Counted from the first letter of the stretch, positions 15,983-59,805 are shown. The stretch: DNA of 64,000 nt from Candidatus Spyradenecus sp. (GCA_045605345.1 JAZUPT010000019.1:64603-128602), one strand, 5' to 3'. Numbers and translations: made by a program. Notes: a model not told the origin generated them from the sequence alone.

Positions 15983-16575
15983 TGATTAATTACTTTTTGA
16001 AAGATGGCACGATGAAACAAATTCTTTTTCCGATGTTCGTCATTACACTTCTTGGTTGCGTGGGGTGCACGACTCCACTTGCAGAGACTCCTATGAATGA
16101 GGTGGACGCCTATGTCGCCTTCTGTCGCGACTTGGCACTTGATGGCGAGCGGACTCCCGATGCATTACGCAGTCCTATTCATGCGCATGAGTATAAAACG
16201 GACTGTAGCATTGTCTATGCCGATGCCGATTATTTGAGCTATCGAGTTGAAGCTTTTGAATACACGGGCGGCGCACATGGGATGACCACTGTAACCGTGG
16301 GAACCCTTGATCGCAAAACGGGATGCAAACTGACTGTTGCAGAACTCCTTTCACGCACAAACCTTTCTGCGCATCAAGATGCAATTAAAGCCTCAATCAT
16401 CCAACGCCTCGGTGGGGCAGAAAACTTGTTAGTACCCCTCACGCTCACGGATAATTGTTACCTTGCAGAAGACGGTCTCCACTTCGTCTACAATCCCCTT
16501 GAAATCGCTTGTTACGCCGCAGGCCTTATCGAAGTCACCATCCCCTACAAAAAAGAATGTAGGGGATGGCGATAG
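15979..16575 (+). CDS. DUF3298/DUF4163-like lipoprotein (RsiV / PdaC C-terminal-like)
   Basis: Lipobox LLGCVGC; YRVEAFEYTGGAHGMTTVTVGTLD, characteristic of the DUF3298 family. Confidence 0.55.
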   Translation: MMINYFLKDGTMKQILFPMFVITLLGCVGCTTPLAETPMNEVDAYVAFCRDLALDGERTPDALRSPIHAHEYKTDCSIVYADADYLSYRVEAFEYTGGAHGMTTVTVGTLDRKTGCKLTVAELLSRTNLSAHQDAIKASIIQRLGGAENLLVPLTLTDNCYLAEDGLHFVYNPLEIACYAAGLIEVTIPYKKECRGWR

Positions 16576-16640
16576 GAGCGTGTGTAAGTGTTTTTAACCT
16601 TTAGGTAAAAGCGTAAATTCTTTTACTTTTATGCAAATAA

Positions 16641-17696
16641 CTATGTACGCTTTAGAAATTTAAACCTAAAGAGAAGCCAAAGATAGGCAATTTTATGACG
16701 GAAACTTACATCACGAAATGAGATTTTCTTTTCAATAAAGAATTCATAAAGAATGTCTGTAAATGCACGAAGTCGCAAATCGCGTTCTTCACGTGACAAT
16801 GATTTTCCACGTCGAATCATATTGAACGTAATCTTCAGAAACTTAATGATGTACCATTTACGTTGATGAGCCCAAAGACCAATTGGGTCGTTCTTTTCTC
16901 GCTCTTCTGTGTAGAGGTCAAAGAGAAGACGGACCTCGGTATGCTGACAGGCGATTTTCTTAAGTGAGATAGTGTTATGCATCATTGAGTTTTCTTGCCC
17001 ACCATTGTAAAAATACAACACTGCTTGCGAGACAACCCATCGCTCGGCCTTTTGAAGCAAGGCGAAAGGACGCGGCAATGAGGCATCTGCTAAAAAGGGA
17101 TAAGTTCGGGCTAATGCAGTTGTTGAAAATTGAATCCAATTGTCGGTATGGATTTCATGTGCTTGGACGTATTGTTTAGGGGTATTCTGTCGAACGGAAT
17201 CATCAGCAATTATGATTGGAATTGTCTCAAAGTCTTTTGGCAGAGGCTGGGGTGATGGAGACTCCCCATAAAAGGTTTGATATCGGAATGCAATGAATTC
17301 TGCATGATAGTGCTCAAGAGCCCATAGAGAATACTCTAAAAGTTGTGGGTGCAATACGTCATCTTGGTCACATGCATAGAAAAATTTTCCACGAGCTAAA
17401 GAAAGACCATTGGAACGAGCCGCGGCAGGGCCAGTGTTGGGTTGTGTTACAACACGAATTCGAGAGTCTTTCGCAGCACATGCTTCCAATACTGCAAGTG
17501 TTTTTCCATTGTCCGTTGATCCGTCATTTACGCAAATGACTTCAAAGGACTGCTCTGTTTGTGCTTGAATACTCTCAAGCGTTCGTATAATCACCTCGCC
17601 GATATTGTAGACGGGAATAACGATTGAAACTTTTGGAGGAGTTGATTGCATACGAAGCCCTTTCGAGTTGAAATACATAAGACAATTCTCACTCAT
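16641..17696 (-). CDS. Family 2 glycosyltransferase. The likely start is MQSTPP near position 17651
   Basis: KVSIVIPVYNIGEVIIRTLESIQAQT ... VICVNDGSTDN ... CDQDD (GT-A fold with the DxD motif). The gene and both flanks are AT-rich relative to their neighbours. Confidence 0.8.
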   Translation of the reverse strand: MSENCLMYFNSKGLRMQSTPPKVSIVIPVYNIGEVIIRTLESIQAQTEQSFEVICVNDGSTDNGKTLAVLEACAAKDSRIRVVTQPNTGPAAARSNGLSLARGKFFYACDQDDVLHPQLLEYSLWALEHYHAEFIAFRYQTFYGESPSPQPLPKDFETIPIIIADDSVRQNTPKQYVQAHEIHTDNWIQFSTTALARTYPFLADASLPRPFALLQKAERWVVSQAVLYFYNGGQENSMMHNTISLKKIACQHTEVRLLFDLYTEEREKNDPIGLWAHQRKWYIIKFLKITFNMIRRGKSLSREERDLRLRAFTDILYEFFIEKKISFRDVSFRHKIAYLWLLFRFKFLKRT

Positions 17697-21921: not shown

Positions 21922-23315
21922 ACGAAGTCGCGTAGATGACCTGCGAGCGCCGCCGCGCCTCTGAAGAGGTAGGCGGGATGTTTTGCTGCGCGAAGGATTT
22001 GGCGCAGAATGGCCATTGGGTGCAAAAAGCCCCGATAGGTCTCCGCGATGCAGGCGCGAATCTCAGCCTCTGTCATCGGAGATTTCATCACAGGTGAACG
22101 CATATCGTAGGCTTCCCAATCACGCGTAAGGAGTTGGTCCGCTTGATCTAATGCCTTAAAGAGAGGCGTGCCAGGATAGGGGACAAGCCACGTTGCTTGT
22201 AAAGTTGCAGCGCGTCCAGTGCGGAGAAATTCACGTCCGAGTGCAACCGTTTTGGCGGCATCGCTTGCCGTCTCCCACGGATAACCAAACATTAGGGTAA
22301 TATGCACATCCAGCCCTGCGGCAGAGGCCGCCTTTGCCCCATCATAGATTTGCTGCACGGTGAGACCTTTGTTGAGCTTATCAAGCGTGGATTGATTGGC
22401 AGATTCCACGCCGAAGAGTACGAGGCGGAAGCCCGCGCGGCGCATGTGTTTGTACTCTTCCGCTGAGAGTGCGCCGAAGCGCATATTGCAATCAATTCGT
22501 ACTTTGCGGTGATAACCGCGCGTAATCATTCCCTCACAAAAATCCTTGAGCCACTTACCTGTTGGTAAACTGCCCGCATCGTCCATGATTTCTTTGACGC
22601 CTCGGTCAATTAAAGCGCCGATTTCATCCAAGACCTGCTCCACCGGGCGGACGCGATAGGTGGGATAGAGCGTTGTCCATGCGCAAAAGGTGCATTTGCC
22701 GTGCCAACAATCTCGTGCGCTCATGATATACGCGCCGGGCGTCTTTGCGAAGTTGCCATTGCGATAGGCGTAGTCTTCCCAACGGGTTAGGTCGCGATCA
22801 ATCTGCGGAAGCATTGAAAGATCCACTGGAATCTCGCGCCCCTCCAACCAAGAGAGCAGGGCAAAGTCATAGTCGCCACCCTTAAGTGCCGCATCCACTA
22901 CGCCACTTCCAAGCACCTCTTCTGGGCATGCCGTGACATGGTCGCCTGCCATAACAAGACGGCATTGGGGGAGGCGCGCTTTGAGTTGGGCCGCCCATGC
23001 TAAATGAAATCGTACCACAGGCGTCTTTGTCTCAAGGAATACCACGTTGGGCGCCCACGCCTCAAGTTCTTTCCAAAAGCGCTCAGACGTCATTGAACGT
23101 GCGATCCCGTCCAACCACAATACGGCATAACCACGCGACTGCAAGAGCGTCGCAGCACTTGCAGGGACCACGGGATAGATTGCGGTAGGATGGCTAAACC
23201 ACTGAAACTGGCGGTTCTGCGAGAGTAAAGGCACCCCCTTCTCCGACGGAATCGGCGGATAACAAAACGCAACGCGACAAGCAGGTGAAGAAGTCTGTGT
23301 ACTCACGCCCCACAT
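21900..23315 (-). CDS. B12-binding-domain radical SAM protein
   Basis: 471 aa; CWHGKCTFCAW (a Cx4Cx2C-type cluster motif) following an N-terminal cobalamin-binding-like region. The stop overlaps the tilS stop (convergent orientation). Confidence 0.7.
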   Translation of the reverse strand: MWGVSTQTSSPACRVAFCYPPIPSEKGVPLLSQNRQFQWFSHPTAIYPVVPASAATLLQSRGYAVLWLDGIARSMTSERFWKELEAWAPNVVFLETKTPVVRFHLAWAAQLKARLPQCRLVMAGDHVTACPEEVLGSGVVDAALKGGDYDFALLSWLEGREIPVDLSMLPQIDRDLTRWEDYAYRNGNFAKTPGAYIMSARDCWHGKCTFCAWTTLYPTYRVRPVEQVLDEIGALIDRGVKEIMDDAGSLPTGKWLKDFCEGMITRGYHRKVRIDCNMRFGALSAEEYKHMRRAGFRLVLFGVESANQSTLDKLNKGLTVQQIYDGAKAASAAGLDVHITLMFGYPWETASDAAKTVALGREFLRTGRAATLQATWLVPYPGTPLFKALDQADQLLTRDWEAYDMRSPVMKSPMTEAEIRACIAETYRGFLHPMAILRQILRAAKHPAYLFRGAAALAGHLRDFVQHSSKR

Positions 23316-23448
23316 TATAGTCTAAACCCACCCCATTCGTCCTGCCTTTTTCAAAAAAAGCAGGTGGTTGGATTAGGAATGTTATGTAGAAGAATCCGAA
23401 AGAAGCAACGCACGAGCGCGCCTCTTTGAACGGATGATTGGACGCAGT

Positions 23449-24155
23449 TTAGAGCGTTACAGGTGCGCTCATAAACGTTTGTCGGGTGGCACCCTTCTCC
23501 TGTTGGAAAAGCAGTTGAATTGTGGTGCCAGTGGGGTAATCTGCGCTATTGAGCGAGAAAAGTACCTCTTTGCCAGACTTCTTTTGCAGAATGGGCGTAA
23601 TCGCAGTGCGCTGTTGGTCAACAATGACAAACCACTTCGCCTGTTTCCCCAATTGCTCACAATACAAATGACGCCCATTCACCAGAACAAACGTAGTCTC
23701 CCCAGAAGGCGTTACTTCCACGTCACGCAGTTCAGGAGTTGTAATGGCATCAACCTTTTCAACCGTTACACCCTCTAACGCATGACGCAAGCGTGACCCT
23801 GCAGAGACCGAAACTAAGAGCTGATGTTTGCTACTATCAAATGCTTCGTCTTTGGTTGTGAAAGCACCTTTAATGGTTGGGCGAAAGCGCATAACGGAGC
23901 CAAAATTAACCGAGCGGCCATGGCGAAGATTGTCAATGATGACATCCATCATCTGTTCGGCTATGCCCAAAATTTCATGTTCAGCATACTTTGATCCTTC
24001 GCGAACCATCTGCTGGGCGATGGTTTTTAAGCTTGCCGGGTGGATTTCAGCTCTTGCTGCATAATACTGTTTCCCGCGAACCAAATATGGCAACGGGATT
24101 AATCAATAAGCGATGTTAGCAATCGTATTGCGAACATTTAAAAGACGTGGACTCA
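23449..24155 (-). pseudogene. HU-family DNA-binding protein with a C-terminal DUF4469-like domain, interrupted by an in-frame TGA
   Basis: ATG at 24153-24155 (RBS GGAGG upstream) encodes MSPRLLNVRNTIANIAY, then an in-frame TGA, then the same frame continues LIPLPYLVRGKQYYAARAEIHPASL... to 23449. The ORF track restarts at a TTG codon at 24093. Confidence 0.5.
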
Positions 24156-24277
24156 TAAGTAACCTCCATACGAACGTAGAACAAATACATTTAATAATGT
24201 AACCTTGCGCTCATCATATCACAATCCTGCCACTTTTACTGTTCAGTTTGTTACAAACTCAAATCCAGTTTGTTACA

Positions 24278-24560
24278 TTTCATTTCTTCAATACTTTGTA
24301 CCATATTTGCCGTGCCGTAACTTATTCATTTACAATAACTTATTTTGAATATTTTATGGCAGGCAATTTTAAGTTTAAAATCAGTACAATTTGTACTATT
24401 CATGCAAAATTTAAACAGTACAATTTTTTTGGGGGCCAATTATTTAAAGGGGAAATTTCCTCTCGGGAAGAAATCTTAAACAGTACAATTTTTAGCCGGG
24501 GACTTTTTAGACCTGTTTAGAAAATTCTAGAAAATAGTACGAAGGTCCGAAGAAGTGAAA
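24278..24560. mobile_element. MITE-like non-autonomous element, copy 1 (283 bp) with terminal inverted repeats
   Basis: Near-identical to 31178-31459. Ends are TTTCATTTCTTCAATACTTTGTAC ... GTACGAAGGTCCGAAGAAGTGAAA (about 17 of 24 terminal positions inverted-complementary). Contains AGTACAATTT three times and the palindrome GGAAATTTCC. Confidence 0.6.
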
Positions 24561-24759
24561 AAGGGCGAGACCCTTGAAGAATATGGTACCATATTGATGA
24601 GGAAAATGGTACCCTATTCTTCGGCAATATTAGCCTTTTTCAAACGCAGAAAGGGTTGTTTTCGTTTTCAATATTAGCCTTTTTGATTTTGAAAATGGGT
24701 ACACTTATTTTTTTGATTTTGTGAGGGGGCGTTTCTTTCGTCAAATTAGACTCTTTTGC

Positions 24760-24800
24760 AGAGAGAAAAAGAAACGCCTCCCCGACATCCGGAGAGGCGA
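24760..24800 (-). terminator. Rho-independent terminator of the minus-strand lipoprotein operon
   Basis: Stem CGCCTC ... GAGGCG with loop CCCGACATCCGG, followed on the minus strand by TTTCTTTTTCTCTC. Confidence 0.55.
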
Positions 24801-24823
24801 TGGATCAGTGGTCGTTTATGGGA

Positions 24824-25447
24824 TTACCAGCCGATGGAAGAACCCTTGCCGCCCTGCTTTGCCATATCAACCGACTTCTGGAAGACGGTGCGACGCTGGC
24901 GATTGTTGAGGCGAATTTGGAAAGTATAATTCTTCTCACGCAGGTCTGCATTGGCAGCCGTGAGCAGATTGATGGTACCTTCCATGTAGAAGTCTGCTGC
25001 GTCATCTCTATTCACGGCGACATCATTCATGAAGGCGTCTTCCTTATTGGCAGCAATTGCTCCGGCATCGTTTGCCACGATTTCAACGAGTCCGCTATTG
25101 AGCAGGTCTTCATTGATACGGCCTGCAATCTGAGCCAGGTCAATGGACAAATCTGTTTTATTGATAATGCTGCCGACATTAATCACAGGCAGACGACCAT
25201 TCTTTTTCTCAAAATTAACAATGTGACCATTGTTGAGCATGGCTTGCGTGAGCTGACCTGCAGCATTCTTGAAGTCCTGCAAGTCCACACCCATAGAGGT
25301 GATCGCTTCTGTACCACCTGCAACAATACGACGGGGCTGCTGTGCAACACAGCCCGTCAAAAATACACCAAGTAATGCGCAACCTGCTAAAAATGCAATG
25401 TTTTTCATCTTTTGAGTTCCTTTTTTAATGTGTACGGTTTTTATCAT
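24824..25447 (-). CDS. LpoB-like lipoprotein (penicillin-binding protein activator LpoB/YcfM family)
   Basis: Lipobox LAGCALLGVFLTGC; C-terminal pattern ADFYMEGTINLL ... YTFQIRLNN, resembling LpoB. Confidence 0.55.
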   Translation of the reverse strand: MIKTVHIKKGTQKMKNIAFLAGCALLGVFLTGCVAQQPRRIVAGGTEAITSMGVDLQDFKNAAGQLTQAMLNNGHIVNFEKKNGRLPVINVGSIINKTDLSIDLAQIAGRINEDLLNSGLVEIVANDAGAIAANKEDAFMNDVAVNRDDAADFYMEGTINLLTAANADLREKNYTFQIRLNNRQRRTVFQKSVDMAKQGGKGSSIGW

Positions 25448-25485
25448 CCGATAATTTCTTCAGGGAAACTGCCGCATGAAGAAGA

Positions 25486-25908
25486 TTAGTTATCGGCATT
25501 CAACAATTTAATGCGGAAGTCCCGCGCCTCACGCGAAGGTGCAGTAAAAGAAAGACTCCGGCTTTCACGCGCTTCAAAGACATATTGCTGCCAGCCACCT
25601 CCTGCGGTGTCAATTTTCATCGCAGCAGCATCGTACCACTCCATCTGCGCATTCACCGTCAGGCGATTACGTGTAAAGTTTTCCATTTCGAGCTGCACGC
25701 GAAGTAATCCTGCTGCATTTTCTGCAGTATTAATCCGTACTACGCCAAAATCATCTGCGAAGTTCAAATCGGTATCCACGCGACTGTCACGAATAATATT
25801 CATCGCAGCAGACTTATTTGCATTTTCTACCGTATTGACAGAAACACCTGCGCAGCCCACCATCAGGAACATCCCAATGCAAGCCGCACAAAAAAGAGCT
25901 TGTTTCAT
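25486..25908 (-). CDS. YcfL-like small lipoprotein
   Basis: 140 aa, lipobox MVGCAG, size and context (next to an LpoB-like gene) as in ycfL-lpoB operons. Confidence 0.45.
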   Translation of the reverse strand: MKQALFCAACIGMFLMVGCAGVSVNTVENANKSAAMNIIRDSRVDTDLNFADDFGVVRINTAENAAGLLRVQLEMENFTRNRLTVNAQMEWYDAAAMKIDTAGGGWQQYVFEARESRSLSFTAPSREARDFRIKLLNADN

Positions 25909-25954
25909 ACGTATTCCCTTTCCTTACTGTTGTTGCTGAAATAATAACATAAAA

Positions 25955-27388
25955 TCAACGGATCTTGAATGCCATCACGCAGGCTTTACTATTCGCATGC
26001 ATCGTGCGTACACAGATGACCCACACCTCTCCGGTTTCAGGCAATGTAAGTGTTTGCAAGGTACGCCCGTCCTGCGTAATCGTTACCTGACGATCAGCCG
26101 GCATGTCAATGCGTCCCACACCGATATGCTTCGGCAAAGCATTCCAACTGCGTGTATCTGCCGTAGCTGTGCCATATTGATAAAGTGCAGTCCCAAGCAA
26201 TGCAGCAATCTGCATATAGGTATTACCACTCTGACGTGCAGCGTAATTCGCAGCATACGAAGCGACCGCTTTCGCAGTAGCAGAAGCAATCGCACGTGTC
26301 AAAATGCCAGGATAATCATTATCATATTCCTTGGCAATGACCGCCTCCATGTCGCAAACCAGCTCAGCTACGCCTACTTGACCACCTCCACGAAGGGTGG
26401 CAAAGGGGCCAACATTCTTGTCAACCTTCAACTTCGGCAAGGCGATGCTGACAAAGGAGAAGGTTCCACCAGCATAGATGGGCAGCAGGATTGAGAACTC
26501 TTCACGATAAGGCGCCATCCCATTCTCATGGAAAAGATACACCCCAGCTGGAATTTTTGCACCAGCATTGAGGCGTTCAACATCCTGACGAATAGTCTTA
26601 TTTTCAGGTGCCATTGAAAGCGCACGTGTCATGCGGAACCGCGCCATTTCACGATCTGCATCATCCACACCTGCATAAAGGTGATAAAACGCGTAGAGAT
26701 ACTCCGAGAAAGGATTCACATACAGTTCATACCCGCGTGTATCAGGTAACTCTTTCATGATTTCATCGGTGGCCTCAGCCATCTCTCCGCTCGAGGATGT
26801 CTTGTCAATACTTGCGCTATTTTCGTCTTTTTCAACCGCCTCACGCGTCTTTTCAATACGCTCGGCATTCACTGCGACAATCTCTTTCTGATGATTATCC
26901 AATCGCACCAGAGGTTGACGCGCATCAGCAATTTTACCTGCCTGTAACGCATTCAAAGCCTGGTAGGTATTCACCATCAAAATATCCGCCCCAGAACCAC
27001 GATACGGCAATGTTGCAGGATTGGTCAAAAGTGAAATTCCTTCGCGGCTGATAGAGACCTTTGCCATGTTCTGCCAATAATCATAGATGCGTTCAGCGCG
27101 ATTGAAAAAGGCCTGACTCGCCCTTTCACGCCCTGCTGCACGCGCAGTAGCACCAGCCTCTAAAAGAAGCACAAGCGTATCTCGCCCATGTTCATCTTCA
27201 GCACCATCCTCAGCCATGTCACTGATCAGTTCCACCGCCCTGTCCGTATCGCCAGTGCCAAACACCTGACGATATTCTGCAACGCGCTCTGAATAGCTCG
27301 CGCAGCCCACCATTAAACCCATCCATATCAGCGACAAAGCCACCCCAAAGGTGCGTTTTGTCCGCATCATTGCTTGAACTTTTGTCAT
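25955..27388 (-). CDS. Lipoprotein of 477 aa, the COG3014-like partner commonly found with LpoB-like and YcfL-like genes
   Basis: Lipobox LMVGCAS, helical/TPR-like N-terminal region. Translationally coupled to its neighbours. Confidence 0.4.
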   Translation of the reverse strand: MTKVQAMMRTKRTFGVALSLIWMGLMVGCASYSERVAEYRQVFGTGDTDRAVELISDMAEDGAEDEHGRDTLVLLLEAGATARAAGRERASQAFFNRAERIYDYWQNMAKVSISREGISLLTNPATLPYRGSGADILMVNTYQALNALQAGKIADARQPLVRLDNHQKEIVAVNAERIEKTREAVEKDENSASIDKTSSSGEMAEATDEIMKELPDTRGYELYVNPFSEYLYAFYHLYAGVDDADREMARFRMTRALSMAPENKTIRQDVERLNAGAKIPAGVYLFHENGMAPYREEFSILLPIYAGGTFSFVSIALPKLKVDKNVGPFATLRGGGQVGVAELVCDMEAVIAKEYDNDYPGILTRAIASATAKAVASYAANYAARQSGNTYMQIAALLGTALYQYGTATADTRSWNALPKHIGVGRIDMPADRQVTITQDGRTLQTLTLPETGEVWVICVRTMHANSKACVMAFKIR

Positions 27389-28284
27389 TCTTTCTTCTCC
27401 ATGGGTTTAACCTGCGAACCGACGGATGCACGTGTATCACCGATTAATTCGCCCTGTGCATAGTCAGATTCTACATCCGTAATCTTTACTGTGCCCATAG
27501 GACGCCCCTTAATCTTACGCGTGACACCCGTATCAGGATCGGTTACAGTGCGCGTCTTGCCATAAACTTTACAGACATCACCGACCTTAAAAATGCCTTC
27601 GCCGGCATTAATCGTAACGTAAATCTCGTCCACATCAATAATCTTGGGCGGGAAAGTTGCGGCGATTAAGAATTTCGTACTTGCCTCAGCCATTTCGCGT
27701 GTCAGTTTGGGCAACATTGAATCAAACCGTCCAAAACGACGATTCGAGGTGTTGGAAACATCGGCAATATCCACCTTTTCAAGTTGCTGATTCGACGCAT
27801 CAATAATTTCAGAAGTGCTTGTATCAATCACACGCATCTGAGTAGAGAGTTGATAACGTACCTTCGCACGATGTACACCATTGAAAACAGCTACATCCGT
27901 GACCTGTTGGAAAGCATCAATTGAGACGATTAAAGCATACTCTCCACCAATCATCTCATTAGCCTGAGCACCTTTTTTCGCCACCAACCCTGCTTCATCA
28001 AGAGCCTGTTCACGAAGCAACTCTTCCAAAGCATCCGAACGCTCCAGAACACGATACTTGCGAGAGGAAACAATCTCAGAGATCAGATGTTCGTCCAAAC
28101 TCTCAATCACGCGCCCCAAAAGCTGCGCACGTTCATCATGCGCCACCTCAGCCTTCAGCGAATCATTCGCGGTAACGCGCGCAACATAGAGCGTCTTCTG
28201 CTGCGCCAAAGCAATCACCGGCATCATCACCGCCAGTGCTAACCATTTTAAACTGCCAGATTTCATCGTTAATCCCCCTTTCAA
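27385..28284 (-). CDS. CsgG/HfaB-family lipoprotein (curli-type secretion channel-like)
   Basis: KTLYVARVTANDSL ... ISEIVSSRKYRVLERSDALEELLREQALDEAGL ... GGEYALIVSIDAFQ follows the CsgG family pattern. Its start overlaps the upstream gene's stop. Confidence 0.6.
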   Translation of the reverse strand: MKGGLTMKSGSLKWLALAVMMPVIALAQQKTLYVARVTANDSLKAEVAHDERAQLLGRVIESLDEHLISEIVSSRKYRVLERSDALEELLREQALDEAGLVAKKGAQANEMIGGEYALIVSIDAFQQVTDVAVFNGVHRAKVRYQLSTQMRVIDTSTSEIIDASNQQLEKVDIADVSNTSNRRFGRFDSMLPKLTREMAEASTKFLIAATFPPKIIDVDEIYVTINAGEGIFKVGDVCKVYGKTRTVTDPDTGVTRKIKGRPMGTVKITDVESDYAQGELIGDTRASVGSQVKPMEKKE

Positions 28285-28285
28285 A

Positions 28286-29530
28286 TTACTTCATTAACCA
28301 GTCAATAAACATCGGCGCCTGCCCTCCGACCACATCTGGCAGTTTATCCGCCTTAATCTGCAAACCACTCTGCTCAAGCATCTTGGCATGGCCCAAACGC
28401 TGAGCCATCTCCGCCTGACTCTGTTCGCGTTCAATCGTCAAATCATGCATAAACTGAATCGAATCCTTTACACGGTTGTATTCCTCATCTGTCATCCGCA
28501 TATTCACCGAAAGCGCCAACCCTTCACTCGGCACAACAGACATCGTGACATCATCATACCCCTCACGCGAGAAGCGCACCTTATGTACACCGCGAGAGAG
28601 ACGTAATGTACACCCAGTCGTACCACGCGCCACCCCATCGACCTCTACTGTCGCAGCCACCTCCGTGGGAATACGATCATTCAAAATGGAATTATCCTGT
28701 TTCAACGCCGGCAAGTAAATTGGCTTATTATTCATATCGTAAGCCAAAACCGTAAACGAAACCGGAATGCCACTCTTCTCTAAAGAAGCCTCACGCCACG
28801 CAGGAGCCTTCTCACGAATCTCTTCTGCCATCGCTGCTGCAAGTTCTTCTTCTAAACCATCGGCGTACTCGCCAAATTCCTCATCGGTAAAGGCCGTCTT
28901 ACGCATTGAAATCTGCGCCTGTAACGTACCCCCATCAAAAGCACTGCCCGTGTAAACATCCGCAATGCGATACGATGCAGAAATCTTGTAAATTTCATTT
29001 ACAATCTGTACATCCGAATTATCCGTTGCCTTACCAAAACGACGATCCCGCAATCGACGCACATTTTTTGTAAACCTGTCAAGCGTCACCGTCAGCAGAT
29101 AATCTGCGCCAGCATTCGCTGCCAAATGCATCCGTGATGTATCCCCCTTCAACTTCTCATCCTGCGTCGGTAAAGCCCGCCCCTTCTCATCATATTCCCG
29201 GCGAGACTCCATAGCAAAAACGGCATCATCCATATCGATGACCTCCACATTCGCTCCGGCAATCTGTGCCCCCACCTGAGAAGCCAAAACCTTACAAACC
29301 TTATCAAATTCCTTTTTACCCGTAATATTTTTCACCATCAACGCCACCACATGGGCCCTCGGCTCTGCCGGTTTCTGCGCCTTCACCTCTACATCATACG
29401 CAGCTTGCACCTTCAATTCCGTGCCGTCTTTCAACCGCAAAGAGACCGGATCTGCTGTAGCCGTCACCTTCTCCGCGCACAAAATAGAGGCGGCAACCAT
29501 TCCGTAAAACAAACAAAGCGACCGTTTCAT
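28286..29530 (-). CDS. Secreted protein with a C-terminal PEGA domain
   Basis: C-terminal VEVDGVARGTTGCTLRLSRGVHKVRFSREGYDDVTMSV is a PEGA-type motif; N-terminal signal peptide present. Confidence 0.55.
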   Translation of the reverse strand: MKRSLCLFYGMVAASILCAEKVTATADPVSLRLKDGTELKVQAAYDVEVKAQKPAEPRAHVVALMVKNITGKKEFDKVCKVLASQVGAQIAGANVEVIDMDDAVFAMESRREYDEKGRALPTQDEKLKGDTSRMHLAANAGADYLLTVTLDRFTKNVRRLRDRRFGKATDNSDVQIVNEIYKISASYRIADVYTGSAFDGGTLQAQISMRKTAFTDEEFGEYADGLEEELAAAMAEEIREKAPAWREASLEKSGIPVSFTVLAYDMNNKPIYLPALKQDNSILNDRIPTEVAATVEVDGVARGTTGCTLRLSRGVHKVRFSREGYDDVTMSVVPSEGLALSVNMRMTDEEYNRVKDSIQFMHDLTIEREQSQAEMAQRLGHAKMLEQSGLQIKADKLPDVVGGQAPMFIDWLMK

Positions 29531-29550
29531 CTCCTCTTTCCTCCTTACAA

Positions 29551-30099
29551 TTAAAAAGAACCATAAATGATGGGGAAAAAGCCTGGCGTTGTATTCGTAA
29601 TCACATTCACTACGCCAATCTGAATCCCACGTGCACCCTCTGCATAATTAATCACACCAATCTGCAAACCTTTAAGGTAATACGCACAGTTAATCACGCC
29701 AATCTGCAAACCACGCACACGCGAAACACTGTTCAGTGCACCCACCTGCAAACCTGCAAAATCCGCTTCCACAGTATTGAGTAACCCCACATCCAAGCCC
29801 TTCATGTTCACACACCGCCCATAAATCGGTGAAATGCGAATCCCACGCACATCCCAATCACCCCAGGGCAACTGAATCGGCGCAAGAATCCCAAGCGACA
29901 ATGGGGTCGTATTGCCATCCATCAAACTGAAATCTGCGCCACTTCCTCCTGAAGGTAAAGGTTTCGGCTGATCAGAAGGTTGACGCGTCGCAGTCCAATG
30001 ATACGTTGCCCCTTCCTGCCCGCTCCCTTCAGCAAAAAGTGTCCCACCCGAAAAACAAATCGTACTCACCAAAACAAAGCATAAAACCCATTTAAACAT
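29551..30099 (-). CDS. Secreted repeat protein with GlQiGxxN repeats
   Basis: Signal peptide; repeats GLQVGALN, GLQIGVIN, GLQIGVIN, GIQIGVVN. Confidence 0.5.
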   Translation of the reverse strand: MFKWVLCFVLVSTICFSGGTLFAEGSGQEGATYHWTATRQPSDQPKPLPSGGSGADFSLMDGNTTPLSLGILAPIQLPWGDWDVRGIRISPIYGRCVNMKGLDVGLLNTVEADFAGLQVGALNSVSRVRGLQIGVINCAYYLKGLQIGVINYAEGARGIQIGVVNVITNTTPGFFPIIYGSF

Positions 30100-30221
30100 C
30101 TTTCACCTCAACCTTCATCACTCCACCAATGTACACCATGTACATTACCCTAAAGAGCGATTCTGCAAAAAGAGTACATCATTTTCAGACCACTGTCAAT
30201 ACAAATCCACTCCGCACCCAC

Positions 30222-30496
30222 CATCCCGACATTATCGTACCCACCCGGCCACTGCGCCGGGTGGAGCCTTTCGCTTTAAGTTCACTTAGAACAAGGTTTA
30301 TCGTGAACGCCCTGACACTGTGACTGGAGTCCCCTCTCACACATCACCCCACGATTATCGTACCCACTCGGCCACTGCGCTGGGTGGAATCTTTCGGCTT
30401 TAAATTCACTGGGAACTGGCGGACCTTATCTGCTTCCGCTCTCTGCTAGCGAGTCTCAATCGCCTTTCGGCTTTAAGTTCACTTGGATCTGTACCA
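30222..30496. repeat. Irregular repeat array of units ATTATCGTACCCACYCGGCCACTGCGCYGGGTGGA (an 8-bp stem hairpin) plus CTTTCGGCTTTAARTTCACT
   Basis: The hairpin-containing unit occurs twice (30236-30290 and 30354-30410). The CTTTCGGCTTTAAGTTCACT motif occurs three times (about 30264, 30394 and 30464). Confidence 0.6.
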
Positions 30497-30879
30497 TAAT
30501 TAAGCTATTGATTCCAAGGGGTTTATTTTGGTGATTTGAAGGGAAACAGGGGTTTTTGAGCATTTTCGTCTCCCTTCAGGAAGATTCTCTATGAGTACTC
30601 CTCAGTTGTCAGTGAGCGCTACGCGCAGGACTGCATGTTTTTTAACACAAGAACGCAAGGTCTTGTTCCGTCGCGCAACTCGGCGCGATGAAAAACCTTG
30701 CTTTGCAAGTTTTTTCCCGAGTATGCCGACGGAACGCTGATATCTTACGGAACGCTGATATCTTAAAGATGGTCTTCACAACAAAAGAGTGGTGCACCAC
30801 GCCTTTCCTTACCCCTCTCTTCTTACTCATCACTCATCCCTTCTCTCTTCTCCCTTCTCTCCCCTCGCCACTCCCCGTG

Positions 30880-31100
30880 AGCACCTGTAAGCACATCCGC
30901 AGGATGTGCAGCGTGCAGGACTCAGTCCTGCCGCGGGGTGTGGGGCTGCGCAAGCCCCACATCTCTCCTCTAATCTACTAATCCACAGCGAGCACCCGCT
31001 CGCGTAATCCACAGCACCGTCAGGTGCGGATATATGCGCCCGATCCCGTAGGGCTGGGAAATCCACAGGGCCGACAGGCCCCTGCGGCGCAGCCGCTCAG
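30880..31100. repeat. Array of roughly eight short GC-rich hairpins, three of them preceded by (T/A)AATCCACAG
   Basis: Hairpins at about 30891-30909 (GCACATCC/GGATGTGC), 30915-30931 (GCAGGAC/GTCCTGC), 30940-30960 (GTGGGGCT/AGCCCCAC), 30989-31001 (CGAGC/GCTCG), 31013-31026 (GCACC/GGTGC), 31066-31079 (GGGCC/GGCCC) and 31084-31096 (GCGGC/GCCGC). AATCCACAG occurs at 30980, 31005 and 31058. A CT-rich tract sits at 30841-30875. Confidence 0.6.
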
Positions 31101-31177
31101 AAAAATAGCCTTTTTGAAAAAGAAAAAGGGTTGTTTTGAAGAAGCGTTAGGGAAGCCTTCATTTTCAATAAGGGCGA

Positions 31178-31459
31178 TTTCATTTCTTCAATACTTTGTA
31201 CTATATTTGCCGTGCCGTAACTTATTCATTTACAATAACTTATTTTGAATATTTTAGGGTAGGCAATTTTAAGCTTAAAATCAGTACAATTTGTACTATT
31301 CATGCAAAATTTAAACAGTACAATTTTTTGGGGGCCAATTATTTAAAGAGGAAATTTCCTCTCGGGAAGAAATCTTAAACAGTACAATTTTTAGCCGGGG
31401 ACTTTTTAGACTTGTTTAGAAAATTCTAGAAAATAGTACGAAGGTCCGAAGAAGTGAAA
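31178..31459. mobile_element. MITE-like element, copy 2 (282 bp)
   Basis: Near-identical direct copy of 24278-24560. It is flanked on the right by TGTTACAAACTCAAATTCAGTTT, matching the left flank of copy 1. Confidence 0.6.
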
Positions 31460-32051
31460 TGTTACAAACTCAAATTCAGTTTCTAAGAAACTTAGAGTCA
31501 ATTTCGCCTCTTTTTGAGTTTTGGCTCAATGAAACCTCCTCCTAAAGTTTGCAGAATGGAGGAAATGTTTTGGCATATGCGGTGGAAAATAATCGCGCAC
31601 AGTTGAGGGGCTGATTGACCATTTTTATACCTTATATGATGGAACCGAAATTGCGATTTCCTCGCAATGGGGACGCGCGTGGGGGAATGGGAATCTGCCT
31701 CAATTCCTTGCACGAGCGCATGAGTTAGGCTATGTTTTTGAAGAAGTACCGCCTGCTTCAATGGGCGGTGTTGAATAAATCGTAGAGCGATTAGTTTGTT
31801 TCTGGGGACGCGTGGGGGCGAGGCTTCCACGCGTTTTATTTACGCAGTACTGGAGTCGTAATAAAACAGTGGTTATGCTCTATTGTGATTTTAAAGCGTA
31901 TAACGGCGCCGCGATGCACTATAAATAAGTGCCGTGGATGCCGTTGGATGTGTTATCTCCGTGCTCCCGTTAGAGGGGGAGGTCGAAATCGGAGGTGTCA
32001 ATTAGTGTTAAACCTTGAGGTAGCACTAATGGCCCCTTGGATGAAACAGTC

Positions 32052-32732
32052 TTACTTGAAGAGGGTGCGTTGCGCAGGGATGTACTTGCGTGACGGGTAG
32101 GTGGTTTGTTTACGAATCAAGTTTAAATCATTGGGCGTGAGGGGGACTCGTTTAAACTTGGGGTTTTCGTAAAAAATGGTTGCGGCGGGGAAGAGGTCGC
32201 CAAATGCGGCATTCGCATGTGTGATGGTGCCATCCTTCTCGAAGGTAAAGGCTTGGTAGACCCAATGATTGTGTTGGCTCTTTTCGAAGTCATTAAAGAA
32301 GGTGGAGTGTAAGAGGTAAATTTTTCCATTCACTTGCACCAAGTCGGTGAGTTTAATGTTGTAGCCTTCAACGACTGTCTCAATGCGTCCTTGTTTGCCG
32401 CCAGAAAGAATGAAATGCGCACTGTATCCGTCAGCATTTAATCCACATCCCATCCAGGGCAAAAGAAAGACATAGTCGTCCACTTCGTCGCCATTGAGGT
32501 CAAGCATCCCGCCTTCGCAATACTGCGCGCTATCAATGTATGTAATTGTTTCACACTCTAACAAACTTAAAAAAGCGGCGATCGTTTCGCTTGAAAAGGT
32601 GGTCATTTCTACAGGGGTGGCCTTCACCTTTGGCGCCCAAGGGGTCTTCCACGCAAAGAGTGTGGTCATACAGCCCATGGCTAAAAATACTGCACTTGCA
32701 CAAATAAAACGTAAAAACGACTGTTGCATCAC
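32052..32732 (-). CDS. Hypothetical secreted protein of 226 aa
   Basis: Signal peptide (AVFLAMGCMTTLFA); no recognisable motif. Confidence 0.45.
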   Translation of the reverse strand: MMQQSFLRFICASAVFLAMGCMTTLFAWKTPWAPKVKATPVEMTTFSSETIAAFLSLLECETITYIDSAQYCEGGMLDLNGDEVDDYVFLLPWMGCGLNADGYSAHFILSGGKQGRIETVVEGYNIKLTDLVQVNGKIYLLHSTFFNDFEKSQHNHWVYQAFTFEKDGTITHANAAFGDLFPAATIFYENPKFKRVPLTPNDLNLIRKQTTYPSRKYIPAQRTLFK

Positions 32733-33021
32733 TGTAACCTCCCTTTCAAATCGTTGCTATCATAACATAAAACGTAAGATAAGAGGTGCTTCGTAAGGGG
32801 TGGTTTGCGCTAAAAAAGAGGAGCTAAAGCAATGAAGCGTTGTGGTAAAAGGGTAGGACGACTCATAGAGGGGGTAAATCTGTGTGCGCGAAATGAGGGG
32901 GAAACGTTGTAAAAAGGGTAGTGCGACCCCGTGGTTTTTCTTGATGAAATACGAAAAGTGTTGCGGAAAAGGCGTTTTGTAGGGTATAATACCTTCACCA
33001 TTTAACACTAAGGAGAAAACA

Positions 33022-39470: not shown

Positions 39471-40547
39471 TTAGAGAATCAACATACAATCGCCGTAAGA
39501 GAAGAAGCGATACCGAGCTTTGACGGCCTCTTCATAGGCGGCCAAAACGCGTTCTCTTCCTGCCAAGGCCGAAATCATCATGATTAAGGTGGACTGCGGC
39601 AGGTGGAAATTGGTCAACATGACATCAATGGCCTTGAAGGTGTACGGCGGGTAAATGAAGGCAGTGCTGCTACCTTGTGTGGCGACAATTTCGCCATTGT
39701 TGAGCGAAGCAACCGTTTCAAGTGTACGCACCGAGGTGGAGCCCACTGCCACAATGCGTCCACCCGCGGCACGAGTTTCACGGATGGCGCGTGCCGTCTC
39801 TTCTGGGATTTCGTAGAATTCAGCATCCATGCGATGCTCTTCCACACGTTCAGCCTTGACGGGTTTAAAGGTGCCCGGCCCCACATGTAGCGTCACGAAG
39901 GCGCGACGCACGCCTGCCGCCTCAAGTTTTTCAAAGAGTTCATCGGTGAAGTGCAACCCTGCAGTAGGGGCAGCCACTGCGCCCACCTCCTTGGCATAAA
40001 CCGTTTGATAACGCTCCTTGTCGAGGCGCGCCATCTCGGGGTCGTTGGCATCGCGTCGAATATAGGGTGGCACGGGGGTGAGACCATACTGGTCCAACAA
40101 TGTCATCAATGGCTTGGCAGAGCGGAAGCAGACGAGGGAGTGTCCCTCTTCGTCCTTGTTGAGCACTTCGGCACGGAGTTGCTGCTCGGCGCAGAGGATG
40201 GTATGACCCGTACGTGACTTGCGTCCACTGCCGCACATGCAGCGCCATTGCGAGGTGAAGAGGCCCTCCACTTCGTGTTCGGTTTCGCAACAATTGAGGA
40301 GCAGTAATTCTGCTGCGCCACCAGTATCTTCCCAAGCACCGAGAATGCGTGCAGGGAAGACGCGCGTGTTGTTCAAAATCATCAAGTCGCCTGGACGTAA
40401 ATAGTCCACAATGTCGCTGATGGATTTGTGCTCAAGCGTGTTGGTCTCGCGGTTCAACACCATCATGCGCGAAGTGCCACGCACCTCTGGAGGGACCTGG
40501 GCGATGAGTTCTTCAGGGAGATTGTAATCAAAGTCTGCGGTGAGCAT
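39471..40547 (-). CDS. queA: S-adenosylmethionine:tRNA ribosyltransferase-isomerase
   Basis: MLTADFDYNLPEELIAQ ... GDLMILNNTRVFPARI ... and a conserved QueA C-terminal region. Confidence 0.85.
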   Translation of the reverse strand: MLTADFDYNLPEELIAQVPPEVRGTSRMMVLNRETNTLEHKSISDIVDYLRPGDLMILNNTRVFPARILGAWEDTGGAAELLLLNCCETEHEVEGLFTSQWRCMCGSGRKSRTGHTILCAEQQLRAEVLNKDEEGHSLVCFRSAKPLMTLLDQYGLTPVPPYIRRDANDPEMARLDKERYQTVYAKEVGAVAAPTAGLHFTDELFEKLEAAGVRRAFVTLHVGPGTFKPVKAERVEEHRMDAEFYEIPEETARAIRETRAAGGRIVAVGSTSVRTLETVASLNNGEIVATQGSSTAFIYPPYTFKAIDVMLTNFHLPQSTLIMMISALAGRERVLAAYEEAVKARYRFFSYGDCMLIL

Positions 40548-43700: not shown

Positions 43701-44304
43701 TTCCTTTAGCTTTCCCCAAAAAAGCTCCCAATTGTTGATAACTTTTCTACCACTTCTACCCCAAATTTTCGCAAGGAAGCCGCTGTAGCGGAGTTGATTT
43801 CGCCCCATTTTTGCATTATCTCTTTATTTCTCAATGCGTTATGCAGTTTCAACAAGGTTGAGCAAAAGTGCCGAAAATCTGCCAATCCGTAGAAGAATTT
43901 TCCAAAAACTGCGTCAAAAAAACCGCATTGTTGATAACTCGTTGATAACTCAAAAAAGTTTTCAACAAGCGAAAAATCGATGAAATTTTCGAAAAAGTGA
44001 TGGTTTCGCGCACGAGATTTTAAGGGACAAAAGGGATGAAAGGGAGGAGGAAAGAGACAGTTACCGCGAACGCAGTTTTAGAGAAGTGACAATCAGGTCC
44101 ATGAGCCCCCGCTCAAACAAGTTCCTTTTCCTATTTCAAATAGTCTCTTTTAATTGTGATTTTCGCCTTTCAAAGATGCTTCCTCCTTGGCGAGCTGCGG
44201 ATGATCCATTCGCGCTTGGGAAACATTTCTATCAACTTCTCGTATGTATAATTATTGATTTATAAATCATTTTGAGTTATAGTGGTAATAGGATTGAGGT
44301 GAGC

Positions 44305-47300
44305 ATGAACACATTCTTCCTTTTTCGTGCGACTATCACATTGCTCTTCGCAATATTCACATATCACACTCTTTTTGCAGAGGGCGACTTCCTTGGGCCG
44401 CCGCTACCCAATCTATCTCCTGAAGATGAAACAGAATTACCGAATGAGGGAAGTGATGATAATGAAGATGCGCCTGTTGAGGAGAATACACCAACTTCAT
44501 TAGCACTTATTGATTACTCGTCTTTTTTTAATCATTATGATTGGAGCACGTGGGATGAACGCATCGCAACATGGTATTCAAATTGTCATGATGCTGCTTT
44601 AATGACTCCACCGCTTCCATTAGGCACAAGAATGCATCATGCCCTTGGTGTTGAAGAAGTTTTTCCTCCCTTTGATGAGTTTTGCCCAAATTTAGAAGCG
44701 ATTGTCGTAGGAGATATTCAAACGTGGCAAGTTCGTGTAGAGGAGCACATTAATGCAGAAGGAGAACGCTCCTTTTGGACGCTCATTGGGAATGTCATTG
44801 TTCATAAGTTGCCATCACCAATGACATTTAATCCAACGAATTGGATTTGTTCTCTTTATGAAGATAATCTTCCTACGTGGCTTTTTGAAGACGAAGAGCA
44901 AACAACGGAGTGGTTGAGTATACGTGACCGAAGTCGCCTTGCAATTACATTAACAATCTTGCCGACAGGAATGCTCTCGACTTACAATACGGTCATGATT
45001 GAACTTGCAGAAGCCGAGCGTGTCAAGCGCGAGGAAGCGCAACAAGACCCTACCGCCTTTGCTTTTACACGGATTGATGTATCAGATAAAGATGTCTTTT
45101 TTGAATTTTACAACCCACTTAATGTTCGACTAAACCTACTGACAAGGGTGCGCCTTGATGAGCCGTGGGCATTATTTGGGGAGGTAGGTGAAACATCTTC
45201 TTTAGGTTACACATCAATTACATTCCCGCGACAAGAAAAAAATGACCCACCCTTTTTCCGTATCGTTGATGCCGTCACAGATACGGACGGTGATGGTTTG
45301 GCGGACGGTCTTGAACTCAATTATTTTAAGAGTGACCCCACCAAACAAGATTCTTCTGGCTCAGGGATTAGCGATTGGGATAAAGTGTATGTTTATAAGC
45401 TTGATCCAAGCGTACGCGATTCTGATGGTGACGGGTTAATTGATGGCGAAGAGATTCACATTGGGACAAATCCACAAGTTGCTGATAGCGATGGCGATGG
45501 GTTAAATGATGCAGAGGAAGTTAATAGCCTTCAACCCGCAGTAGCGTTTACTTGGATTCCAATAACGGCCTCTATTTTAACAAATCCCACGACGGAGTGC
45601 ATTGAGATTATATTGCCATCTGCGGTCAGTTTCGCCGGACATTTGTATGACAAGGTTATTATTGACACTGTGGGTAAACTAACACTCTCGCATACGTCTA
45701 TAGGAGATTCAGTTGATGAATTGATTATTTCAGGACATAGCAATCATCCCTATCTTTCAATTGATGCAGAATCAGACATTCTGTTTGAAGCGACAACATT
45801 TAATGATGTCCCCTGTTTTGTTTTTTCTTTTGTTAATTTAATTTTTGACGATGAGCGAAAAAGTTCTAATCACATCACATTTCAGATTGTATTGAGTTCA
45901 ATGTTCCCTAATCGTGTTTGGATTAACTATCTCGATATTGGTAAAGATAAATGGAATAATGGTGCAATTGCACAAATTCAAAATAAAACAAAGAAATCTT
46001 CTATCACGTTCCCCTACCTAAATGAAGGCACACTTACCACGCAAATCTCACTTGAGGGACGTTTTGGCTATGGCACCAATCCACATCTACCAGACAGTGA
46101 TGCCGATGGGTTATTGGACGGTGTTGAGATTAAAGAGGCGGGAAGTTCGCCTTTAATTGCCGACACCGACAAGGACTCCTTGTCTGATGGCAAAGAATTC
46201 TGTCACTATCACACCTCGCCAGTGTTGATTGACACCGATGGCGACACATTGCCTGATGCATGGGAAATTCAACATGGATTAGACCCCTGCTCAACAAATG
46301 GCAATCATGGACGTTTAGGAGATCCAGATGGAGACCGGCTGCCGAATGAGCTTGAGATGGAATACCAAACGTCTCCGACCCTTGCCGATTCCGATAGGGA
46401 CGGGCTGTCCGATTCGCACGAGGTTGGTCAAATTACTACTGAGAATGTTAATGAGACGCGTTCTGGGACAGTGCTTCATTCACTAAGCCATAGTTCAAAT
46501 GCAGATTCATTAGTCGCAACATTTTCACTCCCCTCTGCAATTCGCTTTAATACTACGTCTTACTCTAAGATCTTAATTTCATTGGATGGTCACATTCTTT
46601 TATTTAATGATGACGAAAATTTCTCTGAACTGTCTTATTCAAACATAAAATTAACGGGACTGAAGAGTTGCGCAACAGCTCTTATTATTGCAGCCTTCTG
46701 GGATGATTTGTATTATTTCGGCAATGAAACACGCATCACATTGGAAGAAACGGAGGATTCTTATCTTGTTCGCTATCAAGATGTTGGGTTATATGATTTT
46801 AAGTCAAACCAATCGGTTGTAGGTACGTTTGTTATTACGCTTCCTAAAAATGCCAATCCTTCTATTTCAATCACATACTCCAATTTTTCCTCTTCTTTTA
46901 CATGTCAAAGTGCGACCATCGGTGTTCGCACTGCATCTCTAAGTCGTGATATTGGACATAAAGTGTACCAATACACTTTTAACCAGGCAGTAGTACTCAA
47001 TAATACTACGGTGAATTTTTTAATAGGAAGTGGCACAGACCCCAACCTTTCCGACACCGATAATGATGGCATCTTGGATAGTGAGGAACTTGCCATCAAC
47101 ACCTCACCCTTTAGCGCCGACGACGATTTAGATGGACTACCTGATGGTTGGGAAATACAGTATTCGCTTAACCCAAAGTTTGCGAGTGGCAATCATGGCG
47201 CTAATGGAGACCTCGATGGAGATTTTCTGCGAAACTTAGATGAATACCGCGCAGGTTCCTCTCCCTTACACAGTGACACTGATAATGACGGTCTACTGGA

Positions 47301-59626: not shown

Positions 59627-59805
59627 AAAACCTCCACGAGGGTTGCGAAATGAAAAAGCGGGGTGGCACAGTTCACACCCTTTACATCGTAACAAATCTT
59701 TTCCGTGAAGAGAATTGAAAATCGGAGGTGTTGCATTGTGTAATTCGGAATACGCATTGATGAAAGGAAGTGGAGAGGCGCGGCAGGTGTGGTACAATGG
59801 AAGGC

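Follow-up and report, generated by a model that had tools for sequence, protein, structure and literature searches.

A six-gene operon on the minus strand of a stretch of chromosomal DNA from the gut Kiritimatiellae bacterium Candidatus Spyradenecus sp. (GCA_045605345.1, JAZUPT010000019.1:64603-128602; the whole 64,000-nucleotide stretch is referred to as the window, and positions are counted from its first letter) encodes six exported proteins, numbered g1 to g6 from the promoter-proximal end, which may form an outer-membrane (OM)-attached periplasmic assembly or scaffold that helps to maintain the cell envelope. We place this reading, in which the operon does not specify a curli-type pore, a little below an even chance. 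The operon is an extension, specific to the Planctomycetes-Verrucomicrobia-Chlamydiae (PVC) group, of a lipoprotein operon already known, if obscure in function: its last three genes (g4, g5 and g6) are, judged by sequence, the widespread COG3014-YcfL-LpoB-like lipoprotein triad, and they are preceded by an LA_2272-type repeat protein (g1), a PEGA-domain protein (g2) and a protein of CsgG fold (g3). No published account of the six-gene arrangement was found in the literature searched. The co-directional genes lie exactly where a preliminary description of this DNA, made from the sequence alone, had placed them (Table 1), and no further long conserved open reading frame (ORF) accompanies them within the operon limits.

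N-terminal signal sequences are present in all six proteins, as expected from that description, which had called the operon one of exported proteins or lipoproteins; only g4, g5 and g6, however, carry a lipobox Cys, and the Gly-Cys pair is invariant among their distant orthologues. The cysteines in the N-terminal regions of g1 and g2 are not conserved in orthologues, and g3 has none. As no Asp follows the lipobox Cys of g4, g5 or g6, the +2 rule of Escherichia coli would place the three lipoproteins in the OM.

The COG3014-YcfL-LpoB-like triad

The first triad protein, g4, matches no Pfam or NCBIfam model. Aligned from end to end (484 columns, E 2e-74), it shares 34% identity with WP_309384062.1, whose NCBI name is 'COG3014 family protein', and the COG3014-like assignment of this 477-residue lipoprotein therefore holds. 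The protein has the lipobox LMVGC, with G28 and C29 invariant, a helical N-terminal half resembling tetratricopeptide repeats (TPR-like) and a conserved DTRSW..LPK motif near its C-terminus. A profile of g4 relatives gathers 6827 cluster representatives at E<=0.001, and a search of PDB sequences with g4 gave chance-level matches only. The second protein, g5, proved to be YcfL-like as first described, matching DUF1425 (PF07233) at 46.9 bits against a cutoff of 28.3 (2.6e-12). It also has the lipobox LMVGC (G18-C19 invariant), and its family profile finds PDB entries 3o0l (8e-12) and 4gio (5e-5), the latter of which we take to be Cj0090.

The third protein, g6, matches LpoB (PF13036) at 56.1 bits against a cutoff of 22.3 (5e-15). 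It had been described as LpoB-like of the DUF799/GNA1162 type; the LpoB part of that assignment stands, while the DUF799 part fails, there being no DUF799 match. The g6 profile finds the E. coli LpoB structures 2mii and 4q6z at E 0.016-0.1 (2mii at 0.016). A match of the single sequence to ParM-fusion entries (4xhp, E 3.5e-6) was treated as spurious once the family profile had found LpoB. Translation of g6 probably starts at the ATG at 25408, which is preceded by an AAGGAA ribosome-binding site and matches the database gene calls; a start at the ATG upstream, at 25447, would lengthen the protein to 207 residues. In E. coli ycfL presumably adjoins lpoB, and g5 and g6 belong to the same two Pfam families, are likewise adjacent and are both OM-type lipoproteins. 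The likeness has limits, as g6 scores only 58.9 bits against the LpoB equivalog TIGR02722, below its cutoff of 110.55, recovers its E. coli relatives at no better than the E-value given above, and has a linker of only ~24 residues between Cys20 of its lipobox (FLTGC) and the globular domain, much shorter than the ~58-residue linker of E. coli LpoB.

The triad occurs well beyond the operon described here. Distant g4 relatives are followed directly 3' by a DUF1425 gene and then an LpoB-domain gene, and the triad is found by itself in an Opitutales metagenome-assembled genome (MAG; contig L016) and on contig L017. On two further contigs (L018 and L028) it is followed by a protein of 436-460 residues whose core fits the g3 profile (CsgG fold plus a C-terminal β domain), while on L027 the order is g3-like, COG3014, DUF1425, LpoB and a g2-like PEGA protein. 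The closest characterised counterpart is the Campylobacter jejuni operon cj0089-cj0090-cj0091, which encodes three lipoproteins, with lipoboxes, in the same order and of similar size (453, 122 and 207 residues, compared with 477, 140 and 194 here) (PMC3100323). It differs in having no equivalents of g1, g2 and g3, and the host here belongs to the PVC group and not to the Campylobacterota. The LpoB/COG3417 domain of g6 is also present in Cj0091 and in HP1457 of Helicobacter; g4 agrees with Cj0089 and HP0018 in size, lipobox, TPR-like character and operon position, a likeness drawn from their descriptions and not from sequence.

Phenotypes are available for both organisms. A Cj0091 mutant shows weaker adherence and weaker colonisation of chicks, and the protein is described as an adhesin; Cj0091 is found in the outer-membrane fraction and Cj0089 in the inner-membrane fraction (PMC3100323). 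Deletion of HP0018, the Helicobacter homologue of Cj0089, disturbs the envelope of H. pylori, and the study, whose title refers to cell-envelope maintenance, discusses chains of outer-membrane vesicles and hypervesiculation in the mutant. Co-immunoprecipitation gave MltD and AmiA as potential partners, and the authors, who note synteny with HP1457, the homologue of LpoB, propose that the two act together in peptidoglycan (PG) remodelling (PMC11394524).

These observations could also be taken to mean that the operon is mainly a regulator of PG synthesis or remodelling, in which g6, like E. coli LpoB, would activate a class-A penicillin-binding protein (PBP) from the OM, g4 and g5 would modulate hydrolases and the other genes would be accessory. 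The above-cutoff LpoB domain of g6, the recovery of E. coli LpoB structures by its profile, the adjacency of ycfL and lpoB in E. coli and the Helicobacter results all speak for such a regulator, yet we consider it unlikely. The score of g6 against TIGR02722 is well below cutoff, its linker is probably too short to reach a PBP in the inner membrane, and the proposal leaves g1, g2 and g3 without a role. To our knowledge, the UB2H docking domain of PBP1b, by way of which LpoB binds and activates this PBP, is confined to some proteobacteria.

Non-lipidated proteins of CsgG-like fold

The third gene of the operon had been described as encoding a CsgG-like channel. Domain searches, named in the preliminary description as the check on both its CsgG and its LpoB assignment, do put g3 above the Pfam threshold for CsgG (PF03783, 36.9 bits against 20.8, 3e-9; residues 50-160, model positions 33-148 of 210), and the gathering threshold is passed by all 16 g3 orthologues (best 1.9e-13). 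PF03783 is a broad fold family, so this membership is only formal. The likeness to the curli channel lies in the core fold, and the features expected of a channel are missing. CsgG needs its lipidation Cys for membrane insertion; the signal peptide of g3 ends instead in a conserved A-x-A before QQKT (here ALA before QQKT), with no lipobox or conserved Cys in any of the 16 orthologues. The g3 start at 28266, which gives 293 residues, is that of the database gene calls; an alternative TTG at 28284 would add six residues (299). When g3 is aligned by profile to E. coli CsgG (4uv3), the match is confined to CsgG residues 62-177 and ends before the second (TM2) of the two transmembrane hairpins from which the 36-strand barrel of CsgG is built. 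At the position of the first (TM1), g3 does have a long β-hairpin, but one that is ~7-10 residues shorter than in CsgG and contains D, H, R, K and R. At the TM2 position the segment is ~10 residues shorter and highly charged; it varies between orthologues and is modelled with a low predicted local distance difference test score (pLDDT). CsgE, CsgF, Curlin_rpt, DUF799 and DUF4810, the last two of which had been suggested for checking, have no Pfam match in the six operon proteins (at E<=0.1 for the curli models).

The AlphaFold2 model of g3 (pLDDT 77) combines a CsgG-fold N-terminal domain with a small C-terminal β-barrel. Foldseek aligns it to the flagellar protein FlgT (3w1e, E 1.7e-16) and to the Vibrio LPHT ring (8z5n, 1.8e-16) over 286-292 columns, whereas CsgG is found at ~1e-6 over ~210 columns, so that FlgT is the better match by ten orders of magnitude. 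Its other fold neighbours are HpaA, the chlamydial CT253, LptE, PelC and, distantly, GNA1162 (4hrv). On the strength of the model, g3 appears to resemble ring-forming or OM-tethered proteins of one fold, among them CsgG, PelC, LptE, GNA1162 and HpaA. The label 'CsgG channel' is probably wrong. Two g3 orthologues (P0010 and P0015) are labelled 'curli biogenesis system outer membrane secretion channel CsgG' by the Joint Genome Institute. Given the absent lipobox and the FlgT-like fold of g3, this is probably an over-annotation that is spreading through databases.

With FlgT and the LPHT ring as its best structural matches, g3 might be thought a genuine component of the flagellar H-ring and the operon part of a flagellar motor scaffold. 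We find this scarcely probable: neither the window nor any of the related loci examined contains a flagellar gene, g3 has two domains where FlgT has three and goes unmatched by the Pfam FlgT models, and its conserved partners are those of the non-flagellar triad.

The PEGA assignment of g2 was confirmed (PF08308, 30.7 bits against 20.8, 3e-7), the domain covering residues 293-347. It follows an N-terminal domain (~60-250) resembling CsgG, LptE and TolB_N, and is itself followed by a helical C-terminal tail. Alignment by hhalign of g2 residues 141-236 with g3 residues 106-193 gives a probability of 75% and an E-value of 2.6e-5, and the g2 orthologue on L027, with a PEGA score of 40.6 bits, has weak LptE and FlgT_M matches in its N-terminal domain. 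A profile search of PDB sequences with g2 gave chance-level matches only. As in g3, the hairpin of g2 is highly charged. With the N-terminal half of g2 in the fold class of g3, the operon encodes three proteins of CsgG/LpoB/TolB_N-like fold, of which g2 and g3 are non-lipidated and g6 is lipidated. No pore features are apparent in the sequence of any of the three.

The LA_2272 repeat protein

The repeats that the preliminary description had seen in g1 belong to the LA_2272 surface repeat family (NCBIfam NF047436), which g1 matches in four stretches at 70.3 bits against a cutoff of 25 (8.5e-20); there is no Pfam match, and the VC2662 equivalog (NF047437) is matched at 47.6 bits, below its cutoff of 140. 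After a disordered N-terminal third, g1 has ~7 units of 14-15 residues with the consensus G-(L/V)-Q-(I/V)-G-(V/L)-(I/V)-N-x-A-x-x-(M/A/L)-(R/K), and it ends in an invariant C-terminal Phe. The family (587 matches) has 3-17 units per protein at a spacing of 14 or 15 residues. A terminal Phe, as in substrates of the β-barrel assembly machinery (BAM), is found in 117 of the 120 LA_2272 members listed, preceded by a conserved cap resembling P-F-x-P-I-(I/V)-N-x-S-F (P0084-P0203). In unit length and terminal Phe g1 is like the LA_2272 and VC2662 proteins of Leptospira and Vibrio; it differs from them in being a non-lipoprotein encoded within a lipoprotein operon, the other members examined being encoded by stand-alone genes. 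Deletion of VC2662 gave no biofilm phenotype (PMC10865864).

In the AlphaFold2 model of g1, pLDDT exceeds 90 over residues 81-170 and the strand assignment is unbroken over residues 83-147 (65 residues), and the protein is predicted to form a short parallel β-solenoid. No neighbour at E<1 was found for the model by Foldseek in the PDB. The weak matches are β-helices (GlmU, hemolysin A, bactofilin and LpxD), in agreement with earlier threading that placed LA2272 and LA2273 on β-helix folds (PMC2387172).

A fusion protein bears directly on the relation of these repeats to the rest of the operon. P0164 (L021, 1809-2744) consists of a signal peptide without a lipobox, a CsgG-fold domain that matches CsgG (2e-11), LpoB, FlgO and TolB_N, and LA_2272 repeats ending in NVGF; its surroundings, 3.2 kb only, are too short to inform. 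Together with the co-occurrence of g1 and the cluster in two PVC lineages, described below, this natural fusion forms a physical link between the repeat domain and the CsgG/LpoB fold, and the earlier proposal of a functional link between the repeat protein and CsgG-fold proteins is borne out to this extent. The fusion is more readily reconciled with g1 being a partner or anchor associated with the membrane than with g1 being a secreted substrate, and its sequence suggests that an LA_2272 repeat domain can replace a lipid anchor.

The preliminary description had gone further and proposed an OM secretion or assembly machine for an unknown substrate, possibly the repeat protein itself. In its most explicit form, g3, perhaps together with g2, would be a CsgG-like OM channel that secretes g1 to build a curli-like fibre or surface layer, with the lipoproteins as accessories. 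Besides the Pfam CsgG scores and the hairpin at the TM1 position, this idea can draw on g1, which co-occurs with the cluster in two lineages and is predicted to be a parallel β-solenoid, and whose family has the core spacing Q-x-G-x-x-N-x-A. The curlin repeat, Q-x-G-x-G-N-x-A, has the same spacing, which keeps the substrate idea alive at a low probability; kinship with curlin was itself rejected, the resemblance being one of motif only, with no Curlin_rpt match. Secretion of g1 through such a channel nevertheless appears quite unlikely to us. Neither g3 nor g2 has a lipidation Cys, the hairpins of g3 are shortened and charged and its alignment to CsgG stops before TM2, FlgT fits it far better, no CsgE, CsgF, CsgC, CsgA or CsgB accompanies it, nor any DUF799 or DUF4810 partner, P0164 joins the supposed substrate covalently to a periplasmic fold, and LA_2272 genes occur in other genomes without a CsgG-like neighbour.

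Conservation of the gene set

A word-index search with g3 found 26 relatives, of which those with a name are all Kiritimatiellae. The contigs that carry relatives come from Kiritimatiellae MAGs of animal guts (among them yak rectum, roe deer cecum and water buffalo cecum), from Candidatus Spyradenecus and from one Lentisphaerales MAG. All six genes are present in the relatives, with their order kept, at 52-88% protein identity and in unrelated neighbourhoods; one cluster adjoins a ribosomal L11-L12 operon, another a restriction-modification/SNF2 cluster. On the Lentisphaerales contig (L011) all six genes are again found, at 28-37% identity and reordered: the PEGA protein is followed by two g3-like paralogues, the COG3014 protein, YcfL, the LpoB-like protein and, at the 3' end, the LA_2272 protein. 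That the order is shuffled and the set retained argues for a functional complex. L011 has three g3-like paralogues in all (7371-9129; 16398-17069), two inside the operon and the third 7 kb off, which suggests, from sequence, that g3-type proteins form hetero-oligomeric assemblies.

Between metagenomes, the within-species identity of g2, g3 and g6 is 99.5-99.8%. The TilS, GH20 and radical-SAM genes on the flanks of the operon reach 96.6-97.8%, which indicates strong constraint on the three, and g1 is at 96.2%. On this sequence evidence the six genes are a real gene set under selection and not a chance run of ORFs.

The same figures bear on the idea that the operon encodes surface-exposed host-colonisation factors or adhesins, with g1 as a variable surface antigen. 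In its favour are the adherence and colonisation defects of the Cj0091 mutant, the words 'surface repeat-containing' in the NCBIfam name of the g1 family, the animal-gut origin of the MAGs that carry relatives, and the position of g1 as the most variable of the six proteins, both within the species and between relatives. Its variation is, however, not above that of the flanking genes, and g2, g3 and g6 are more conserved than their housekeeping neighbours, which is the opposite of what antigens would show. Since the fold relatives are periplasmic, and the triad is also present in an Opitutales genome and other uncharacterised metagenome contigs and so is not confined to gut lineages, we regard an adhesin operon as improbable.

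A putative OM-anchored scaffold

From the composition, export signals, synteny, fold similarities and fusion described above we infer, tentatively, an arrangement in which g4, g5 and g6 would have their lipid anchors in the inner leaflet of the OM, and g3 and g2, both non-lipidated, would assemble beneath it as an oligomeric ring or lattice. This ring or lattice would be held by the lipoproteins and by g1, whose association with the membrane would provide a second attachment. Such an assembly might stabilise the OM, couple it to PG remodelling, or both, a role suggested by extrapolation from HP0018 and the LpoB fold of g6.

A structural precedent is provided by the H-ring of Vibrio cholerae, in which a ring of non-lipidated FlgT is coupled to the OM by rings of the lipoproteins FlgO and FlgP, an arrangement described as 'a robust membrane-anchoring scaffold' (bioRxiv 10.64898/2025.12.02.691832). 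Both systems pair the gene of a non-lipidated, Sec-signal-bearing protein with genes of small OM lipoproteins that have a related α/β fold. The partners here are COG3014, YcfL-like and LpoB-like proteins, however, and not FlgO, FlgP, MotX and MotY, and there is no flagellar context. A more specific version of the proposal, in which PVC bacteria would build a non-flagellar, H-ring-like ring or lattice of FlgT-like and PEGA proteins, secured to the membrane by the lipoproteins and also by the LA_2272 solenoid as a new kind of anchor, is rather unlikely in our estimation.

Several observations weigh against the scaffold. The terminal Phe of g1 is just part of a canonical β-signal, and most LA_2272 genes found elsewhere stand by themselves, so that g1 does not have to depend on the operon. 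The similarity of g3 to FlgT has a low template modelling score (TM-score 0.36-0.37), owing to a different orientation of the domains and to the third domain of FlgT, and the Pfam models FlgT_N and FlgT_M as well as FlgT_C do not match g3, apart from a lone weak FlgT_C match (E 0.12) in one of the 16 orthologues. Finally, a scaffold beneath the OM predicts neither the inner-membrane fractionation of Cj0089 nor the adhesin role of Cj0091.

Transcription signals and genomic context

Translational coupling by several stop/start overlaps had been proposed. There is one such overlap, a 4-nt ATGA at the g3/g4 junction, while the other four junctions are gaps of ~19, 20, 46 and 77 nt; further overlaps of 1 and 4 nt are present in orthologous operons. 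A strong terminator-like hairpin 3' of g6, with an 11-bp stem that includes 8 GC pairs, is likely to be the 3' end of the operon (Table 1), and terminator-like sites inside the operon are at chance level. With the layout of the junctions, these sequence signals make co-transcription of the six genes likely. A scan for sigma-70 promoters gave just weak 9-of-12 matches, and we therefore claim no promoter. No Rfam match, and no riboswitch, was found in 23000-33000.

Table 1 Features of the operon and its flanks (window positions).
Feature	Position	Strand	Description
Six-gene operon	24824-30099	-	Six co-directional ORFs
g1	29551-30099	-	Exported LA_2272-type repeat protein, 182 residues
g2	28286-29530	-	Exported non-lipidated PEGA protein, 414 residues
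g3	27385-28266	-	Exported non-lipidated FlgT-like protein, 293 residues
g4	25955-27388	-	COG3014-family lipoprotein, 477 residues
g5	25486-25908	-	YcfL/DUF1425 small β-sandwich lipoprotein, 140 residues
g6	24824-25408	-	LpoB-domain lipoprotein, 194 residues
Intrinsic-terminator-like hairpin and T-rich tail	24765-24799	-	CGCCTCTCCGGATGTCGGGGAGGCG then TTTCTTTTTC; 25 nt 3' of the g6 stop
MITE-like element, copy A	24277-24560		284 nt, downstream of the operon, 97.5% identical to copy B
MITE-like element, copy B	31177-31459		Oriented like copy A, ~1.1 kb upstream of g1

Upstream of g1, a 59-nt direct repeat occurs twice (30215-30273 and 30338-30396, 83% identical), and 30215-30491 also holds a 28-nt direct repeat in three copies, without an Rfam match. 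Each of the long units contains a CCACCCGGC...GCCGGGTGG hairpin, and strains of the same species differ by an insertion or deletion at ~30453-30487. The array could be regulatory, or resemble repetitive extragenic palindromic (REP) elements, and would lie in the promoter or 5' leader of the operon.

The operon was also thought to be carried on a mobilisable segment between miniature inverted-repeat transposable elements (MITEs). Two copies of a 284-nt element do flank it, and the termini of copy B form imperfect inverted arms of 31 nt (31177-31207 and 31430-31460, 77% complementary). Five metagenome contigs that are otherwise unrelated carry the element too, at 84-94% identity; two of these have it in two copies, and it often lies at the end of a contig. 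Target-site duplications of the element were not identified; the inverted arms and dispersed copies make the label MITE reasonable. Mobility of the operon, on the other hand, is unsupported, and signals of horizontal transfer were looked for and rejected. In all contigs of the same species the operon and both copies of the element stand at the same place, with no empty site, and more distant relatives have the operon and not the element. The GC content of the operon (48.3%) is near the window mean (50.2%), and in relatives the cluster is sometimes above and sometimes below its flanks. The neighbours are housekeeping genes, the window being ordinary chromosome with genes for FtsK, ArgRS, a class-I Glu/Gln tRNA synthetase, TilS, MgsA and similar proteins, and as a scan of the whole window for tRNA genes found none, there is no tRNA integration site.

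A 23-nt sequence, TGTTACAAACTCAAATYCAGTTT, lies directly left of copy A (24249-24271) and directly right of copy B (31460-31482), and a 32-nt segment (24631-24662 and 31106-31137) shows the reverse permutation, so that the flanks look like mutual circular permutations. Just 3' of the operon, between it and a B12-binding radical-SAM gene, a gene on the minus strand (23449-24093; 235 residues in database gene calls) encodes an HU-DNA_bdg (PF14848) protein, its GC content of 47.9% being low like that of the operon. Elsewhere in the window are a 2086-residue protein with bacterial TSP3 repeats (44272-50532, plus strand), a 966-residue protein with VIT and DUF2135 domains (56978-59878, minus strand) and a 941-residue ORF with no Pfam match (40528-43353).

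Implications

The assignment of g3 carries a caution for annotation, as not every PF03783 match is a 'curli secretion channel', although one source already labels orthologues of g3 in this way. The triad is very widespread, with thousands of representatives in the g4 family alone, and its phenotypes are fragmentary and come from Campylobacter and Helicobacter only. In its extended PVC form it gains conserved partners, the FlgT-like, PEGA and LA_2272 proteins, whose structural analogy is clearer. This form thereby provides a testable hypothesis for the triad, that of an OM-anchored scaffold, and another for the LA_2272/VC2662 repeats, a family without a solved structure. If an H-ring-like lattice is indeed formed, this would be the first function for three large families, COG3014, DUF1425 and LA_2272, and would suggest that the flagellar H-ring and disk proteins may have been recruited from a general envelope scaffold.

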